Of a DNA stretch of 32,000 nucleotides, positions 7,911-23,906 are shown piece after piece. Positions within the stretch are counted from its first letter, which is position 1. Each line of letters starts with the position of its first letter. The translations under genes were made by a program, and so were the position numbers. This DNA comes from Synechococcus elongatus PCC 6301 (GTDB taxonomy: Bacteria; Cyanobacteriota; Cyanobacteriia; Synechococcales; Synechococcaceae): positions 960,001 through 992,000 of the forward strand of contig NC_006576.1 in assembly GCF_000010065.1 (NCBI RefSeq), read 5' to 3'. The notes below the pieces were generated by a model. The model did no database searches. It was given only the letters and a program-made list of their open reading frames with translations, and had not been told where the DNA came from.

Positions 7911-8150
7911 GGCCAATTGCGAGCAGCAAGATGGACGCGAGTACCGTATCGGCCGTGGGACAAATGCTCTTGCGATCGCTGCCGAACTGGCAGCGTCTAA
8001 CTGAGACTTTGCGACGAGAGGGCTGCGAGCTGGGACTATTCCACCGCAAGATTCCAGAAAACTAGAGCCGCTCAGTGACTTCTCCCAAACCCACCTGTCG
8101 GTAAGAGCACCCCAGCTGCTCGCAGGCGTTGTCATTCCCCCAGAGATACG

Positions 8151-8180
8151 AAAAAGCCCCTGCCGAGGCAAGGGCTTTTC
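8151..8180 (-). terminator. Rho-independent terminator of psbDC (also flanked by an A-run, so potentially bidirectional)
   Basis: The minus strand reads GAAAAGCCCTTGCC-TC-GGCAGGGGCTTTTT. This gives a 9-bp stem with one G-U pair, followed by T5. It lies about 30 nt past the psbC stop. Confidence 0.8.
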
Positions 8181-8211
8181 AGACTTTGAGGCTAATGTCC
8201 TGCAGTTGGAA

Positions 8212-9597
8212 TTAGTCGAGGTCTCTCATTGCGAGCACGGGTTCGGTCGCGCGATCGATACCTTTCTCAAAGCCTGCAGCAGCTGCACGAGCGCGGCCTG
8301 CATGCCAGAGGTGACCGACCAAGAAGAAGAAGGCCAAGACGAAGTGGCTGGTCGCCGACCAAGCACGGGGAGACACGAAGTTCACCGAGTTGATTTCCGT
8401 TGCCACACCACCCACAGAGTTCAGCGAACCCAGCGGTGCGTGGGTCATGTACTCAGCCGCACGACGGGCTTGCCAAGGCTGAATGTCATTGGTCAGCTTG
8501 TCGAGATCCAGACCATTCGGTCCACGCAGGGGCTCCAGCCAAGGGCCACGGAAGTCCCAGAAGCGCATGGTTTCGCCACCGAAGATGATCTCGCCGGTAG
8601 GAGAGCGCATCAGGTATTTACCCAGACCGGTCGGGCCTTGAGCTGAACCGATGTTGGCACCGAGGCGTTGGTCACGCACCAAGAAGGTGAAGGCTTGCGA
8701 TTGCGAAGCTTCAGCAGCGGTCGGGCCAAAGAACTCGGAAGGATAGACGGTGTTGTTGTACCAAACCATCGTCGAGGCAATGAAGCCCATCAACGACAGG
8801 GCACCCAAGCTGTAGGAGAGGTAAGCTTCGCCATTCCAGATGAAGGCGCGACGCACCCAGCCAAAAGGCTTGGTCAGGATGTGCCAGATACCACCCGAAA
8901 TGCAGATCAGACCAATCCAGATATGGCCGCCAATCACGTCTTCAAGGTTGTCGACGCTGACAATCCAGCCGTCGCCACCAAAGGGTGATTTCAGCAGGTA
9001 GCCGAAGATCACAGCCGGGTTGAGGGTTGGGTTGGAGATGATGCGGACATCGCCACCACCCGGCGCCCAGGTGTCATAGACACCGCCGAAGAACATGGCC
9101 TTAAAGACCAGCAAGAAGGCACCTAAGCCCAGCAGAATCAGGTGATAACCAATGATGTTGGTCATCTGATTCTTGTCTTTCCAGTCTTGGCTGAAGAAGG
9201 TGCTGTACTCTTCCAGCGACTCAGGGCCGCGCAGGGCGTGGTAGATCCCACCCAAACCCAGAACGGCGGAAGAAATGAGGTGCAGAACCCCAACCACAAA
9301 GTAGGGGAAGGTATCGACGACTTCGCCACCAGGGCCAACGCCCCAGCCGAGGGTCGCCAAGTGCGAGAGCAGGATGATGCCTTGCTCGTACATCGGTTTT
9401 TCGGGGACAAAGTGCGCGACTTCAAACAGCGTCATCGCACCAGCCCAGAAGACGATCAAGCCAGCATGAGCGACGTGAGCGCCCAGCAGCTTACCGGACA
9501 GGTTGATCAAACGGGCATTGCCGGACCACCAAGCGTAACCGGTGGAGTCAATATCCCGGCCGCCTGCGATCACGGAAGGACTAGAGAGCGTTACCAC
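8212..9597 (-). CDS. psbC: Photosystem II CP43 chlorophyll apoprotein
   Basis: Unmistakable CP43 sequence: [47 protein letters not shown]...AMRDLD. The start codon at 9597-9595 is GTG and lies inside the psbD 3' end. Confidence 0.98.
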
Positions 9598-10639
9598 GGG
9601 GCAGAACCTCTTCGGGGAAGACGAATTTTTCGTGCGGTTGGTCTTGCGGTGCCATCCAGGCCCGAATCCCTTCGTTCAACAAGATGTTCTTCGTGTAGAA
9701 CGTCTCAAATTCCGGATCCTCAGCGGCCCGCAGCTCCTGCGACACGAAGTCGTACGCCCGCAGGTTCAACGCCAAACCTACAATCCCGATCGAGCTCATC
9801 CACAAGCCCGTCACCGGCACGAACAGCATGAAAAAGTGCAGCCACCGCTTGTTCGAAAACGCAATCCCGAAAATCTGGCTCCAAAAACGGTTCGCCGTCA
9901 CCATCGAGTACGTCTCTTCGGCCTGCGTCGGCTCAAATGCCCGGAAGGTGTTCGATTGCTCTGAATCCTCGAACAGGGTGTTCTCCACCGTCGCACCGTG
10001 AATGGCGCACAGCAATGCCCCACCCAAAATCCCGGCCACGCCCATCATGTGGAATGGGTTCAAGGTCCAGTTGTGGAACCCTTGCAGGAACAACAAAAAC
10101 CGGAAAATCGCTGCCACGCCAAAGCTCGGAGCGAAGAACCAGCTCGATTGACCCAACGGGTACATCAAGAACACCGACACGAACACTGCGATCGGACCCG
10201 AAAAGGCGATCGCGTTGTACGGACGGACGCCCACCAACCGCGCAATCTCAAATTGACGCAGCATGAACCCAATCAGGCCGAAGGCGCCGTGCAGTGCTAC
10301 GAAGTTCCACAAGCCACCCAACTGGCACCAACGCACGAAGTTCCCTTGTGCCTCGGGGCCCCACAGCAGCATCAACGAATGCCCAAACGCATCCGCTGGG
10401 GTGCTCACTGCTACGGTCAAAAAGTTGCCGCCTTCTAAGTACGAAGACGCGATGCCGTGGGTGTACCACGACGTCACAAAGCTGGTCCCGGTCAACCACC
10501 CGCCCAGTGCTAAATACGCACAGGGAAACAGCAGCAACCCTGACCAACCCACAAATACAAATCGGTCGCGCTTCAGCCAGTCGTCGAGGACGTCAAACCA
10601 TCCCCGCTCCGCTGGCGCTCGCCCTACTGCAATCGTCAT
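9581..10639 (-). CDS. psbD: Photosystem II D2 protein (the psbC-linked copy, psbDI type)
   Basis: 352 aa. [51 protein letters not shown]...[12 protein letters not shown] is canonical D2. Confidence 0.98.
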
Positions 10640-16904: not shown

Positions 16905-18104
16905 ATGACGCAGCTGATTTCAATCGATAAGGAGCGAGAGGAAGCCGGCATGACTCAGGCCACCGAACTACTCGACCCCGCGCTCAAACCGGCGGAAACA
17001 AAGGCCAAACGGAGTAGTCGCAAAAAAGCGACAACTGCTGTTGTTGAGCCCGCAACCACGATCGCTCCGACTGCAGATGTCGACGCGATCGACGACGAGG
17101 ATTCGGTTGGTGAGGATGAAGATGCGGCGGCCAAAGCCAAAGCTAAAGTCCCCAAAACCTATACAGAAGACTCAATTCGGCTCTATCTCCAAGAGATTGG
17201 TCGAATTCGGTTGCTGCGGGCCGATGAAGAAATTGAGCTCGCCCGTCAAATCGCTGACTTGCTTGCTTTAGAACGCATTCGCGATGAGTTGCTCGAACAG
17301 CTCGATCGTTTGCCCAGCGACGCCGAGTGGGCCGCTGCTGTTGACTCGCCGCTGGATGAATTCCGCCGCCGCCTGTTCCGGGGTCGCCGCGCCAAGGACA
17401 AGATGGTGCAGTCGAACCTGCGGTTGGTGGTGTCGATCGCCAAGAAATACATGAACCGGGGTCTGTCCTTCCAAGACCTGATTCAGGAAGGTAGCTTGGG
17501 TCTGATTCGGGCTGCCGAAAAGTTTGACCACGAGAAGGGCTACAAGTTCTCGACCTACGCGACTTGGTGGATTCGCCAAGCCATCACCCGCGCGATCGCG
17601 GATCAAAGCCGCACGATCCGCCTGCCTGTTCACCTCTACGAAACCATTTCTCGCATTAAGAAAACCACCAAGCTGCTTTCTCAGGAAATGGGTCGTAAGC
17701 CCACCGAGGAGGAGATCGCCACTCGCATGGAGATGACGATCGAGAAGCTGCGGTTTATCGCTAAGTCAGCCCAGCTGCCAATTTCGCTGGAAACCCCAAT
17801 CGGTAAAGAAGAAGACTCGCGTCTGGGTGACTTCATCGAAGCTGATGGCGAAACCCCCGAAGATGAAGTCGCAAAAAACCTGCTGCGCGAAGACCTTGAA
17901 GGCGTCCTTAGCACTCTCAGCCCCCGCGAGCGCGATGTGCTGCGCCTGCGCTATGGCTTGGATGACGGCCGCATGAAAACGCTGGAAGAAATCGGCCAGT
18001 TGTTTAATGTCACCCGCGAACGCATCCGCCAGATCGAGGCGAAAGCACTGCGGAAACTGCGTCATCCCAACCGCAACAGCATCCTGAAAGAGTACATCCG
18101 CTAG
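16905..18104 (+). CDS. rpoD1: Principal (group 1) RNA polymerase sigma factor
   Basis: Regions 1.2-4.2 are all visible: [120 protein letters not shown]. An alternative start at ATG 16950 (MTQATELL) has a better Shine-Dalgarno sequence (GAGGAA) than 16905. Confidence 0.95.
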
Positions 18105-18135
18105 GATCTACGCTTCATTACCTCAGTGAATTAAC

Positions 18136-18169
18136 AAGCTGCTCGAGATAGTCTTGGGCAGCTTTTTTA
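18136..18169 (+). terminator. Rho-independent terminator of rpoD1
   Basis: AAGCTGC(TC) at 18136-18144 pairs with (GG)GCAGCTT at 18156-18164, and the sequence runs into T6. Confidence 0.7.
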
Positions 18170-18176
18170 TTAGCAT

Positions 18177-19028
18177 TCACATATAAAATGAAGAGTTTCC
18201 TGCCATCGCAGCTTTAATTGTTTCCTCAATTGCAGAAGGTTTCCAAACAATACCTAGTTGAGCTTTAAACGAATCGTCCCCAACTCGTCCAGAATAGATT
18301 CCCAAAAATTTTCTTCCCTCGCCTATCATTGCCTCATCCTGATTCGTAGCACCTTCGGGTAGCCAATAACCAACCTGTCGTGCGTAAACAGGTGCACCTG
18401 ACATTCCTTCACGCATTGCTGTATCAATAAATAGTTTTGGTAATCCGTCAATATCAAAATCTGGCTCTGAGGCAATACTTCCTCGCTTCCACACCGGAAA
18501 GTTAGCCCCTCCACTTAATCCTCTAGGAAAGCCTAAAACGAAAACATCTAGGCCCGGACAAAGTCTTATATTATCTAATTTAAAATTTGGATCATTAGCG
18601 TGTTTGATTTCAGATCCCTTAACTCCATTAATATTAATAGGAATGGCAACCAAATCTACCTGATACCTATATCTTGGATGTTCATACCAAACTGGCTGTT
18701 TGGGTGAATCTCCCTCATCTTCATATAGTGGAATGACATAGGTAGTCCACTCAATAAATTTGAGCCCAGAACTATCATGGGTGCTAGATGGAATCTTGAT
18801 AAATAGGTGATTTGGAAGAGCAGCCTGATTGGATTTACACTTTAAGGTACTTGGCTCTCTTCCTGTCACATTGTGCCAGTTTGTCACCAAATACGACTTG
18901 TCCTCATGCAAATAAAAGAAAGCAGTTCCACAGGCAATTTCTTCATTTTTAAAACACATAGATATTTGAATAGGAACATAGGATCTCGTGTCACGTAACT
19001 CCGAGACTCTTTGTCTAGGAAAATTCAT
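18177..19028 (-). CDS. Stand-alone cytoplasmic trypsin-fold (S1/Trypsin_2-like) serine protease
   Basis: 283 aa. Catalytic triad in canonical order and spacing: His52 in CGTAFFYL...YLVTNWHNV, Asp125 in QVDLVAIPI, Ser210 in REGMSGAPVY. No signal peptide and no TM. AAGGG lies 8 nt upstream of the ATG. Codon usage is AT-rich, unlike the neighbouring genes. Confidence 0.85.
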   Translation of the reverse strand: MNFPRQRVSELRDTRSYVPIQISMCFKNEEIACGTAFFYLHEDKSYLVTNWHNVTGREPSTLKCKSNQAALPNHLFIKIPSSTHDSSGLKFIEWTTYVIPLYEDEGDSPKQPVWYEHPRYRYQVDLVAIPININGVKGSEIKHANDPNFKLDNIRLCPGLDVFVLGFPRGLSGGANFPVWKRGSIASEPDFDIDGLPKLFIDTAMREGMSGAPVYARQVGYWLPEGATNQDEAMIGEGRKFLGIYSGRVGDDSFKAQLGIVWKPSAIEETIKAAMAGNSSFYM

Positions 19029-19132
19029 AAAAAACCCTTACTAAAAAAGCAATGTACTAGTCGATCTAACTGTGTCTCGTAACACACAGTCCTAGCCCTA
19101 TTGGGCGTCTCACTCCTACTTTTAAGTAAGAC

Positions 19133-19675
19133 TCAAGGTTGAACGCTGACGATCGCGCCTTCCTCTACTAATTCAAACAGAGCACGGATATCGCGATTTT
19201 TCATCCGCACGCAGCCATGGGAAACCGCTTGGCCAATCAGGGATTCAGCCGTCGTTCCATGGAAACCAATCGAGTTTTTGCCATCAGTCCAAAAGCCGAT
19301 CCAGCGATCGCCTAGAGGATTGTTGGGACCGGGAGGAACAAGACTGCCATTCCAAGGATGCTGCCAAGTCGGATTGACGATTTTGCTCATGACCCGAAAA
19401 GTACCACGGGGCGTTTCCCAACCCGGCTTACCGATGCCCACAGGGTAACTCGCGATCGCCAAGCGATCGCGATAGACCGTCACTCGGCGCTGCCGCAAAC
19501 TCAAAACTAACTTTGTGGTTGGGGCAGGTGCTGGAGGAGGCGCGATCGTTGCTTCTACTGGAATAGCTGGAACCGCCATTGTGGCTGGTGGGGGAATCGG
19601 AATTGCCGCAAGTGGGCTGGCGATCGCACAGCAGGCGACGAGCAAGCTGGAGTTCCAGAGAAGGCGCAACGCCAT
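19133..19675 (-). CDS. L,D-transpeptidase (YkuD/ErfK domain), secreted
   Basis: Motifs: YPVGIGKPGWETPRGTF, NPLGDRWIGF, IGFHGT and the active site SHGCVRM. The track ORF reaches 19759, but the ATG at 19675 gives a proper signal peptide (MALRLLWNSSLLVACCAIASPLAA). Confidence 0.85.
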   Translation of the reverse strand: MALRLLWNSSLLVACCAIASPLAAIPIPPPATMAVPAIPVEATIAPPPAPAPTTKLVLSLRQRRVTVYRDRLAIASYPVGIGKPGWETPRGTFRVMSKIVNPTWQHPWNGSLVPPGPNNPLGDRWIGFWTDGKNSIGFHGTTAESLIGQAVSHGCVRMKNRDIRALFELVEEGAIVSVQP

Positions 19676-19879
19676 AGCAGCAAGATTGAATTCGGAGGCT
19701 ATCTCCCCCACTGTACTCAGCAAATTCTGCCAGCGTCGAGTCCCGACAAGACTGCCCATTGTCTGAAAACAATAACTGCTTTACGGTTCAGCCCAGTGAA
19801 TGGTTATTCGGAGTTGAAGGCTCAGCGATCGCTCAGCGGGCTTGTACTATCTCAACCCACTTGACCTAACGGCAGCAGC

Positions 19880-21532: not shown

Positions 21533-23797
21533 CTAGGAACTCGGGCGATCGCCCTCTGACAGGTTGGGTGGGCAGAGCCCCTGCAAGGTCGTCAACAGCA
21601 GCTGCGGATCTAGGGGCTTGGACAAAATTGCTGAGGCTTGGGCTGTGAGTAAGGGATCGACGGGTGGTTCTCCCAAGAACAAAACTAACGGGGGATGGGG
21701 ATCGGCTTGGTGTTCTCGGAGGTGCTGCAGCAGAAGTAAGCAGCTCTGATCGGGCGGTGGCCAAGCCATCAGAATCACAATGGGCTGCAGTAAATCGAGT
21801 TGATCAAGAGCTGTGCTGCCATCGACGAGCCAGATCACCTTAAAGCCCGCCGCCGTCAACATTTCACAGACGACCGTAGCTGCTTCATCCTCTTCTTCCA
21901 GTAAGAGAATGTGGCCAGCGGGCAAATTATCGATGGACGGTCTAGGCTCGACGGGTTCGATCAGCGTTTGTTCGGGGATCCAGACTGTAAAGGTACTACC
22001 CTGACCGACGGTTGATTCAATTTGAATGTGACCGCCATGTAGTTCAACCAGCTGCTTGGTTAGAGCCAGCCCTAGGCCCGTGCCACCGTACTGGCGGCGA
22101 ATGGAAGTATCGAGCTGTTGGAACTTTTGGAACAGCTGAGCTTGTTCACTTTCAGGAATTCCAATTCCCGTATCACTGACTTGAAAGATGGCGCGATCGC
22201 CTTCTCGCCAAACCCGCAGGAAAACAGTTCCTTGGGGTTCAGTAAATTTGACAGCGTTACTGAGAAGATTAATGAGAATTTGGCGCAATCGCTTTGGATC
22301 GGCTCGGAAGACGTCCACACGGTTGTTGAGCTGGAGATCCAGCATGAGCTGAATCTCGCCTAAACGGGCTTTTTCCTGCAGGGTATTGAGGGTTTGGGTT
22401 GCCAGTCTTGAAAGGGAGAATGGACGCACTTGTAAGGCTGCTTTACCTGCCTCAATTTGAGACAGATCAAGAATGTCATTGATCAGTTCCAGCAGGTGTT
22501 CACCGCTGTCATGAATCGCCTTTATATATTCCCTTTGCCGCTCGGTCAAAGGGCCAAAGGCCCAGCGCAGCAACGTACTTGACATCCCAATCACACAGGT
22601 CAGAGGCGTCCTGAGTTCATGACTCATGGTGGCCAAAAACTCACCCTTGGCCGCATTGGCCGCTTGGGCCAAGGCAAGAGCATCAATTAGCTCTTGGGTA
22701 CGTTCCAGCACGCGGTTTTCTAACGTCTGTGTCTGATCTTGGAGCTGACCGTAGAGCTGTGCTTGGTAAATGGCGATCGAGAGGTGTTCTGCTAGGTGCT
22801 GGAGAATATCACGCTCCCGAGGTTGCCACCGATGATCTTGCTGGCATTGATGGGCAACGAGTAAGCCCCAAATTCGCCCCTGCACTAGGATCGGAATTTT
22901 ACAAACCGATCGCACTTGAACACGTTCATAGAAGGAATACTGCTCCGGCAGTCTTTCCTTATAGAAGCCAACTGAATCAATGAGAAGCGTTTCCCCTTGC
23001 TGGAACCGTTGCCATTCCTCTGTCGTGATTAATAGCCCTGGTTGGACTAGAGGATCGATCACCGACAAAAGTGCTTCGTTGCGACGATCTTCGTAGGTAA
23101 TGTAGGACTGACTTGGAATATAAAGTGGCCAACGTTGATCGAGTCCAGCGTCAAGACATTGCGGCTTAAATTGATAGATAATCGCACGATCGGCATTAAG
23201 CAACTGACGAATTTCACGGATCGTAGTTGTCAGAATTTCTGAGAGATCTAAACTGAGACGAATTTGTGCAGAGACTTGACTGATCAGGCGATCTTGTTCT
23301 TCTTGCCAATGAAGAGCTTGTTCTAGCGGTTGACAGACGGAAACAGCAGGATATTGAGCTGCTAATGGTGCTCGATCAGCAGCGATCGCGGCAATCAAAA
23401 GATTACTGAATTGACTGATCAAGTCTGGGTTGAGACTGAGGTCGCCGAGTTGAGCCAAGGCAGGCTGGTATTCAACTGGTAAATTCGTCGCTTGGCAATA
23501 GCGCTGAATACTGTCAGCACCAAACTGCACACTGACATGGTGAGGTTCGCTTAAGGGGTGAGGCTGGCAATACTCTGCGGCAGTCCGCCCTAACAACAGC
23601 AGCTGAAACCCTGCTGCGATCGCGATCGCACAATCTCCCGTTTGGGTCCGCAGATGCGTATGCAGCGATCGACTATCCCAATAAAACGCTTGGGGCAGTG
23701 TTGCCACAAAATCTTGCAAAGCACTCTGTAACTGAGCAAAACCTTCAGGAGTCAGCCGCTGGCTGGCAAGGGAGCAATTTGAGGATGGTGCCAGCAT
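21533..23797 (-). CDS. cikA: Circadian input kinase CikA: GAF, histidine kinase and pseudo-receiver domains
   Basis: GAF region (LNADRAIIYQF...), H-box MSHELRTPLT, N/G boxes LLSNAVKFT, DTGIGI, GGTGLGL. The C-terminal receiver-like domain has Ala at the phospho-acceptor position (IVILMAWPP). The track start at 23803 is a TTG. The ATG at 23797 gives 754 aa, which matches my recollection of CikA's length. Confidence 0.85.
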   Translation of the reverse strand: MLAPSSNCSLASQRLTPEGFAQLQSALQDFVATLPQAFYWDSRSLHTHLRTQTGDCAIAIAAGFQLLLLGRTAAEYCQPHPLSEPHHVSVQFGADSIQRYCQATNLPVEYQPALAQLGDLSLNPDLISQFSNLLIAAIAADRAPLAAQYPAVSVCQPLEQALHWQEEQDRLISQVSAQIRLSLDLSEILTTTIREIRQLLNADRAIIYQFKPQCLDAGLDQRWPLYIPSQSYITYEDRRNEALLSVIDPLVQPGLLITTEEWQRFQQGETLLIDSVGFYKERLPEQYSFYERVQVRSVCKIPILVQGRIWGLLVAHQCQQDHRWQPRERDILQHLAEHLSIAIYQAQLYGQLQDQTQTLENRVLERTQELIDALALAQAANAAKGEFLATMSHELRTPLTCVIGMSSTLLRWAFGPLTERQREYIKAIHDSGEHLLELINDILDLSQIEAGKAALQVRPFSLSRLATQTLNTLQEKARLGEIQLMLDLQLNNRVDVFRADPKRLRQILINLLSNAVKFTEPQGTVFLRVWREGDRAIFQVSDTGIGIPESEQAQLFQKFQQLDTSIRRQYGGTGLGLALTKQLVELHGGHIQIESTVGQGSTFTVWIPEQTLIEPVEPRPSIDNLPAGHILLLEEEDEAATVVCEMLTAAGFKVIWLVDGSTALDQLDLLQPIVILMAWPPPDQSCLLLLQHLREHQADPHPPLVLFLGEPPVDPLLTAQASAILSKPLDPQLLLTTLQGLCPPNLSEGDRPSS

Positions 23798-23906
23798 AGG
23801 CAAAACCTGCGATTTAGCAGGCTTTTAGTCATTTAATTGCATTGTTACAGAGATTTTTCGACGGGTTAGAAAGTCCCCATAGGCTTTTAACATCTGGCGT
23901 ATTTCG

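Follow-up and report, generated by a model that had tools for sequence, protein, structure and literature searches.

A horizontally acquired gene for a predicted stand-alone trypsin-fold protease next to rpoD1 in Synechococcus elongatus

In Synechococcus elongatus PCC 6301, a short segment of low-GC DNA is found between the gene of the group-1 sigma factor RpoD1 and that of an L,D-transpeptidase (here named ldt). The segment harbors a single gene, which encodes a predicted cytoplasmic serine protease of the trypsin fold. It is part of a stretch of 32,000 nucleotides (NC_006576.1, positions 960,001 to 992,000), referred to below as the window, which is of the S. elongatus PCC 7942/6301 type; all positions are those of the window. 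The protease gene was acquired horizontally, and its relatives form a large family that is carried by phages and conjugative plasmids and is found near defence genes. An earlier note, made from the letters of the window and a list of its open reading frames (ORFs), had described positions 18105-19132 as a foreign island with an unusual, unregulated-looking protease, and the present analysis follows up that description. The features of the locus are listed below.

16905-18104, plus strand: gene of the group-1 sigma factor RpoD1 (Synpcc7942_0649, locus name found in PMC2758279; Pfam Sigma70 r1.2, r2, r3 and r4), convergent with the protease gene
18136-18164: native hairpin terminator common to the convergent rpoD1 and ldt/protease transcripts, with a stem of 13 pairs and a T-run after it on the plus strand; outside the insert
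18168-19132: foreign insert, 965 bp, about 40% GC, defined by BLASTN against the sister locus L131 and by outlying GC and codon adaptation index (CAI); about 50 bp of the sister genomes are replaced
18177-19028, minus strand: gene of the predicted stand-alone cytoplasmic trypsin-fold serine protease, 283 residues (ORF, Pfam, alignment, AlphaFold)
18873-18875, 18654-18656 and 18399-18401, minus strand: catalytic codons of His52 (in TNWHN), Asp125 (in VDLVAIP) and Ser210 (in GMSGAP), respectively, read in the sequence
18960-19028, minus strand: N-terminal 23 codons of the protease, omitted by the RefSeq model and conserved in homologues
19029-19132, minus strand: structured spacer from the ldt stop to the protease start, 104 nt, with three hairpins including that at 19069-19090
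19133-19759, minus strand: L,D-transpeptidase (YkuD) gene, Synpcc7942_0647 (Pfam YkuD, 1.2e-26), upstream of the protease gene and in a common operon with it

Horizontal acquisition of the insert

The foreign composition proposed in the earlier note is borne out, but the GC content given there (37%) was too low. Computed over positions 18105-19132 it is 40.0%, compared to 57.2% in the remaining window, and this region is the lowest-GC 1-kb window of the 32 kb (1-kb mean 56.5%, standard deviation (SD) 3.8%). In the codons of the protease ORF, the GC content at third codon positions (GC3) is 0.297 versus 0.637±0.057 in the 21 other long ORFs of the window, and the CAI, referenced to the window, is 0.544 versus 0.736±0.030 in the same ORFs, i.e., each value is about 6 SD off. 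The HIP1 (highly iterated palindrome 1) octamer, of which the window holds 83 copies in 32 kb (one per 386 bp), is absent between 17593 and 19303, in line with the earlier note. At this density the chance of a HIP1-free 1 kb is about 7-8%, so the absence fits a foreign origin but is only weakly informative and not diagnostic. The largest HIP1-free gap of the window is found elsewhere, at 7972-10206 (2,234 bp), and holds two ORFs (8212-9597 and 9581-10639) with normal GC, GC3 and CAI. Because this gap has a normal composition, a lack of HIP1 alone does not mark DNA of the window as foreign, and the absence was dropped as an independent sign of foreignness.

Relatives of the locus were reached via the neighbouring L,D-transpeptidase protein. 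In the complete sister genomes CP143871 and IITB7 (CP143859), as well as in two further sister lineages represented by Logan assemblies, ldt and rpoD1 are adjacent and the protease gene is absent. The order of the locus is constant in all four sisters (hemL, a small ORF, ldt, convergent rpoD1, a GNAT gene and priA); in the window, hemL, a GNAT acetyltransferase gene and priA are likewise found beyond the flanking genes. The ldt-rpoD1 spacer spans 113-114 bp in three of the four sisters and 296 bp in the fourth, and the nucleotide identity of the sister rpoD1 genes to that of the window is 89-92%. Alignment to the sister locus L131 using BLASTN extends on the rpoD1 side across the terminator to position 18167 and ends on the ldt side exactly at the ldt stop codon, at 19133, which places the insert at 18168-19132. 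The left border at 18105 given previously is therefore incorrect, and the terminator at 18136-18164 belongs to the native DNA. The sister lineages thus retain the ldt-rpoD1 arrangement without the protease, and the gene was acquired horizontally by the PCC 7942/6301 lineage, as had been proposed.

The hairpin at 18136-18164, which is common to the transcripts of the convergent genes as previously noted, is regarded as native because it is conserved in sister genomes, where it was found at the loci L131, L132, L139, L142 and L143. On the minus strand, the sequence that follows the hairpin is GTTAATT in the window and a T-run (TTTTAAAG) in the sister genomes. Termination in the minus direction may be weaker in the lineage that carries the insertion.

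Among the characteristics commonly used to define genomic islands, the insert displays an atypical composition and absence from close relatives. No integrase or transposase, insertion sequence (IS) element, tRNA target or flanking direct repeat was found with it or around it. The earlier note had described a single gene without a partner, inhibitor or mobility gene, and a scan of the ORFs of the island led to the same result: apart from the protease gene, there is no ORF of at least 50 codons except one of 62 codons located wholly inside the protease gene in another frame. A 12-nt inverted repeat (18161-18172, GCTTTTTTATTA, and 19039-19050, TACTAAAAAAGC; 11 of 12 positions complementary) lies almost exactly at the two ends of the protease ORF. 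Because its sequence is AT-rich and 28 similar pairs, itself included, occur within 1.5 kb, it is probably due to chance, although it could alternatively be a relic of the insertion. Given the natural competence of S. elongatus, a reasonable guess for the entry route is natural transformation combined with illegitimate recombination.

The lineage nearest to the window (L139, Logan SRR18779422; rpoD1 identity 92%) harbors an unrelated insert of 232 bp with about 41% GC (L139:4538-4769) at the equivalent position, i.e., in the slot that separates the ldt stop from the shared terminator. A frame in this insert, which ends with RVSLDYRALGLLEDDHIYWFWIGTHAEYEELLKRL before its stop codon, aligns with the C-terminal half of the toxin domain ParE_like at an E-value of 4e-4, which is below threshold because the match is to a fragment. 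This slot, where a different insert with a ParE-like remnant is found, is thus a hotspot in which accessory cargo lands repeatedly.

The protease and its expression

The product of the ORF is identical to ABB56680.1 (Q31QI9_SYNE7), and its length and neighbours match those of Synpcc7942_0648 (CP000100, 641843-642694). All available S. elongatus copies are identical, and the predicted mass is 31.8 kDa. The catalytic triad that had been read in the earlier note (His52, Asp125 and Ser210) is intact, and it is invariant in an alignment of 35 homologues with 45-72% identity. This alignment displays 42 invariant columns, i.e., the triad and 39 others, and the S. elongatus ORF retains all 42 of these residues. 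Conserved motifs of the alignment that resemble those of HtrA proteases are FPxWKRGSIASEPD, DTATREGMSGxPV and YSGR.

The assignment to the trypsin fold, for which Pfam and structure searches had been suggested as a check, is supported by both. The sole Pfam match is Trypsin_2 (PF13365), with an E-value of 4.3e-5 and a score of 24.7 bits, below the gathering cut-off of 27.6; most homologues carry a precomputed match to PF13365. NCBIfam has no model for the protein. The AlphaFold model is mostly composed of β-strands and was obtained with a predicted local distance difference test score (pLDDT) of 90.2 and a predicted template-modelling score (pTM) of 0.89. Comparison of this model to known structures using Foldseek (probability 1.0, E-value about 1e-6) yielded DegS without its PDZ domain (DegS-ΔPDZ), DegQ, V8 protease, thrombin and the 3C protease of foot-and-mouth disease virus, at query-normalised TM-scores of about 0.45-0.5 and an identity of 12-16%. 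A sequence search of the PDB with the family profile returned nothing useful (best E-value 0.56), i.e., the placement came from the comparison of folds only. As judged from the model, the protein is a soluble serine endopeptidase of the PA clan, chymotrypsin/HtrA-like (Trypsin_2), with a complete triad, and it represents a divergent branch of the trypsin fold with no close relative of solved structure. The cytoplasmic location predicted previously is borne out by a hydrophilic N-terminus and a maximum Kyte-Doolittle 19-residue mean of 0.97, i.e., neither a transmembrane segment nor a signal peptide was found, in this protein or across the family. The protease domain fills all 283 residues and no PDZ domain was detected by Pfam, which also applies to the family as a whole.

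The databases differ in the position of the start codon. The GenBank model comprises 283 residues, while the RefSeq models (WP_234701800 and WP_242016353) comprise 260 residues and start at Met24. Because the N-terminal 23 residues are conserved in homologues (residues 8-23 are conserved, with V18 nearly invariant), Met1 is probably the true start, and the comparison of sequences suggests that the GenBank model is correct and the RefSeq model too short. A plausible ribosome-binding site (AAGGG) is located 6 nt before the ATG codon of Met1. This probable correction of the RefSeq start codon is independent of the function of the protein.

According to transcript data for PCC 7942 (Vijayan et al. 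2011, PMC3219970, Additional file 1), Synpcc7942_0648 is covered on average by 6.70 RNA-seq reads at each nucleotide (Table S5), where the cut-off for "transcribed" is 2. The corresponding values are 17.05 for ldt, 120.5 for rpoD1, 1.76 for the GNAT gene and 2.57 for priA. In the same study, transcript 754 spans the six ORFs 0643 to 0648 (5' end 636732, 3' end 642838; Table S1). From the low read count and the position of the gene as the last ORF of this transcript, it follows that the protease gene is weakly expressed via read-through from the host operon 0643-0648, in which it is the terminal gene. The description of the protease as unregulated-looking was thus an overstatement. The 3' end of transcript 754 maps to about position 18033, i.e., about 144 nt past the protease stop and beyond the shared hairpin, such that the end of the transcript is antisense to the final 70 nt or so of rpoD1 (about 18033-18104).

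A scan for sigma-70 promoters on the minus strand of the spacer between ldt and the protease gene returned none. The RNA of this spacer is predicted to fold with a minimum free energy of -35 kcal/mol (z = -3.7), and none of 200 shuffled sequences was as stable; the 7-bp hairpin at 19069-19090 pointed out in the earlier note is real and is one of three. Read depth declines from 17.05 to 6.70 across the structured spacer, which may attenuate the read-through transcription. It is not kept in the regions upstream of the homologues, among which no conserved 5' region or promoter was found.

Relatives of the protease

A word-indexed search identified 1,042 relatives. An exhaustive profile search of 1.84 billion representatives of 50%-identity clusters yielded 5,814 proteins at a cut-off of E<=1e-3, a number that falls to 2,814 at E<=1e-10 and to 1,345 at E<=1e-30. 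Among the best 150 of these 1,345 clusters nearly all proteins consist of 255-320 residues and align to the full profile without a break. With few exceptions, the members are stand-alone proteins of about 270 residues. The bare protease domain is therefore the rule in a family of thousands rather than an oddity, and the term "unusual" in the earlier note was too strong. The closest homologue, from Leptolyngbya, is 72% identical. Other members are found in a patchy pattern in other cyanobacteria, gamma-, alpha- and betaproteobacteria, Bacteroidota, Verrucomicrobia, a metagenome-assembled genome (MAG) of Dehalococcoidia, Firmicutes and Streptomyces.

The protease gene has a lower GC content than its surroundings in 73 of the 77 loci for which the flanks add up to 3 kb or more (among loci L001-L128), with a median difference of -10 points, and this contrast is also seen inside prophages and plasmids. 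The lower GC content is a family-wide signature of mobile cargo and points to either ongoing recent transfer or selection in favour of an AT-rich coding sequence, e.g., by xenogeneic silencing. An all-against-all BLAST comparison of the neighbouring genes across 129 loci revealed no conserved partner gene; recurrent neighbours were confined to groups of related prophages.

The strongest profile match of the window protein is the phage protein family PHROG 7688 (E=7e-38, residues 20-248 aligned to positions 12-229 of 288). A family gene was found at 31 loci in IMG/VR. In two groups of prophages it is located on the opposite strand, with the Rz spanin or endolysin genes on one side and the HNH/small terminase genes on the other, i.e., in a moron slot, and in a third group it splits the tail operon at a point flanked by K-like and I-like tail genes. 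A search of phage records yielded a sole homologue, SfII_57 of Shigella phage SfII (KC736978, 40333-41049; locus L016). This protein lacks the N-terminal third including the catalytic His, and its gene abuts ORFs A and B of IS911 in the slot between the lysis cassette and HNH/cos; it is an IS911-truncated copy in a moron slot. In the plasmid database PLSDB, 91 plasmids carry a homologue, and 63 of these are conjugative. Many of the chromosomal copies are located far from any prophage.

The neighbouring genes observed on plasmids and in genomes of different hosts include the following.

Klebsiella IncF plasmids: operon of a type II cyclic-oligonucleotide-based antiphage signalling system (CBASS; cGAS/DncV-like, ThiF/E1 and JAB) and a NACHT protein, 1-7 kb upstream
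Peribacillus: SIR2 protein of 1,174 residues
Acinetobacter: RelE/ParE pair
Photobacterium: type I restriction R subunit
Sphingomonas: TIR protein and integrase
Rhizobium: PIN protein and nucleotide cyclases
Cyanobacterial genomes: PIN, BrnA-like and DUF4258 toxin-antitoxin genes

The arrangement on the conjugative IncF plasmids, which combines the homologue, CBASS, NACHT and IS110 genes, was found in 69 Klebsiella records. On the Klebsiella variicola plasmid p13450-2 (NZ_CP026016.1, 55.6-64.3 kb, L133), where the homologue is next to the type II CBASS, NACHT and IS110 genes, the region is a compact plasmid defence island. A sample of 141 genes within two positions of the homologue at 36 non-redundant loci was also analyzed. 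The most common Pfam families in this sample are phage integrases, HNH proteins, terminases, tail proteins and JAB/NlpC, and PADLOC identified single instances of PARIS AriAB, AbiJ, PDC-M52, PDC-S32, PDC-S24, SoFic and Stk2. Matches of neighbours to GajB and RTasHel, also from PADLOC, trace back to one UvrD-like helicase in one MAG and were discounted as evidence of defence.

In PADLOC-DB, the window protein matches best to the phage defence candidate (PDC) PDC-S45 (E=6.7e-19, 65.9 bits), in two stretches of which the better covers residues 155-246. All 10 diverse homologues that were tested also have PDC-S45 as the best match, with scores of 25-73 bits; alignments reported as one long stretch are collinear over about positions 11-236 of the 293-position profile. 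The PDC systems comprise 145 candidates that were nominated by their embedding in loci of BREX (bacteriophage exclusion), DISARM (defence island system associated with restriction-modification) or type I restriction-modification (Payne et al., bioRxiv 10.1101/2024.01.29.577857). PDC-S45 has also been reported in prophages, and a bona fide member scores E=4e-94 (PMC12429752). PDC-S45 and the window protein share the architecture of a single-gene module of about 290 residues, with a trypsin-like protease and no obligatory partner. Because the scores of the window family reach only 25-73 bits, compared to 4e-94 for a true member, it is a sister family of PDC-S45 rather than part of its core. The next matches of the window protein in PADLOC-DB are the protease part of the type XI retron (5e-4) and LmuA of Lamassu (0.04); when the homologues are included, the E-values of these second-ranked matches are about 1e-4 to 1e-6.

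Comparison to other known systems reveals partial similarities. Close relatives of the window protein, those of PHROG 7688, are carried by phages; the window copy, in contrast, is chromosomal with no surrounding prophage, and PHROG 7688 itself has no functional annotation. The window protein shares with the HtrA, DegP, DegS and DegQ proteases (MEROPS S1C) the two-β-barrel fold, the His-Asp-Ser order and the GxSGxP and "GSIAS" motifs, but differs from them in that it has neither a PDZ domain nor a signal peptide or periplasmic location, harbors additional insertions at the N-terminus and between the motifs, and belongs to an element-borne rather than a core family. The type XI retron and Lamassu LmuA illustrate that trypsin-like proteases are used as cytoplasmic defence effectors. 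However, the retron protease is fused to a reverse transcriptase and functions with a noncoding RNA, whereas the match of the window protein covers only positions 344-477 of the 510-position profile and the protein has no reverse transcriptase domain. Similarly, LmuA is partnered with the SMC ATPase LmuB, whereas the window protease is flanked by rpoD1 and ldt. A functional analogy is found in Lit of the Escherichia coli prophage e14, a single-gene protease that is latent until a phage product is present and then cleaves EF-Tu. The analogy is restricted to function, i.e., Lit is a zinc metalloprotease, unrelated in fold and mechanism to the window protease.

Possible functions of the protease

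The earlier note had listed defence by abortive infection, a toxin-like protease or a phage or plasmid remnant as possible roles, and these ideas would agree with the ecology of the family. As the leading interpretation, the chances are about even that the protein is a single-polypeptide module of the abortive-infection type, directed against phages or other mobile elements, with a putative trigger and substrate. In such a scenario the protease would be held harmless by the low read-through expression combined with narrow specificity or latency. Upon infection it would encounter a substrate or an activator made by the phage, and would then cleave a phage or host protein such that phage multiplication is blocked. 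The main strength of this interpretation is the consistent genomic ecology, where the association of the family with mobile elements and with defence genes is established in qualitative terms.

A number of observations weigh against a role in defence. The association with defence genes is without a background rate, and the 69 Klebsiella plasmids probably reflect a single event. The low PDC-S45 scores indicate a related family rather than PDC-S45, which is itself only one of the 145 candidates, and the literature yielded no functional study of Synpcc7942_0648, of the family or of a trypsin-like single-gene defence system. Within the window no defence gene, integrase or toxin-antitoxin pair is found nearby. 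Few phages are known to infect S. elongatus PCC 7942, which makes any selective benefit in this host hypothetical. The main weakness is that no latency, inhibitor or sensor element is visible in this bare, constitutively transcribed protease of 283 residues.

Among the alternatives, the most serious, albeit an improbable one, is that the protease benefits the mobile elements on which it is encoded, e.g., by degrading a host defence protein or repressor, by processing a protein of the element or by excluding competitors, in which case the S. elongatus copy would be a stranded passenger. The positions of the gene inside prophages (within the tail operon and at the lysis-terminase junction) and on conjugative plasmids are consistent with this idea, as are the low, passive expression and the window itself, where the copy is an orphan with no mobility gene or other gene of an element. 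However, moron slots, often on the strand opposite to the late genes, are typical of cargo that is expressed in the lysogen rather than of structural or lytic genes. In addition, many chromosomal copies are distant from prophages, the neighbours on plasmids and in genomes are defence genes rather than anti-defence genes of a leading region, and the S. elongatus ORF keeps all of the 42 invariant residues. Another possibility, considerably less probable, is that the protease acts as the toxin-like component of an addiction or toxin-antitoxin module that stabilises DNA without sensing phages, where the antidote is missing, tiny or present in cis, e.g., as an autoinhibitory tail. The frequent toxin-antitoxin neighbours (PIN, BrnA, DUF4258 and RelE/ParE), the ParE-like remnant in the equivalent slot of a sister lineage and an 86-residue ORF without a family match, which follows the gene in Leptolyngbya, would fit such a module. 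On the other hand, no small neighbour is conserved in the 129 loci, the 72 bp between the protease stop and the rpoD1 stop leave no room in the window for an antidote ORF, and the gene persists stably and is transcribed even though no antidote is apparent.

The two remaining explanations do not involve conflict between genetic elements. The nearest solved folds are the protease domains of DegS and DegQ, members of the HtrA family, and the gene is co-transcribed with host genes; both facts are compatible with a domesticated HtrA-like housekeeping or stress protease engaged in quality control, e.g., under conditions that induce the hemL-ldt operon. This explanation is nevertheless very unlikely: the gene is absent from three sister lineages of the species complex and its codon usage is strongly foreign, the protein has neither a PDZ domain nor an export signal, and the family is patchy in distribution and element-borne. 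Slightly less credible still is a functionless relic with an ORF that is intact because it is too young to have decayed. Expression is indeed low, and the identical S. elongatus copies make post-acquisition selection not measurable. However, the ORF is full-length with every family-invariant residue kept, the ribosome-binding site is plausible and the N-terminus conserved, while homologues that have truly decayed look different, as exemplified by SfII_57 with its truncation by IS911.

If the protease does act in defence, a broader proposal would be that the family represents a new, widespread class in which a bare cytoplasmic protease is both sensor and effector, either activated by a phage protein or cleaving one; this is offered tentatively, as a possibility with the odds against it. 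It is similarly doubtful, though conceivable, that members of such a class spread as minimal promoter-less cargo into the 3' ends of host operons or into the moron slots of prophages. The gene has been annotated before, and PADLOC already includes a category of stand-alone trypsin-like defence candidates. Provided that the defence role is correct, the family would be among the simplest immune modules known, with more than 1,300 clusters at 50% identity over several bacterial lineages, in prophages and on clinically relevant Klebsiella plasmids. A protease without a separate sensor would then raise the question of how a trypsin fold encodes both latency and the recognition of phages, and S. elongatus PCC 7942, a tractable model, would hold one naturally occurring single copy of such a module. 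The locus in S. elongatus lends itself to a clean natural experiment, with an insertion mapped to the base, isogenic-like sisters without the gene, transcript data and an engineerable host. Even if the defence role is incorrect, the locus documents a minimal transfer of a single gene into the 3' end of an operon beside an essential sigma factor gene.

Elsewhere in the window, the second-lowest GC3 (0.50) is that of a GAF sensor histidine kinase gene on the minus strand (21533-23803), which by position is Synpcc7942_0644. Its CAI is also low (0.677), yet the sister genomes carry this gene too.

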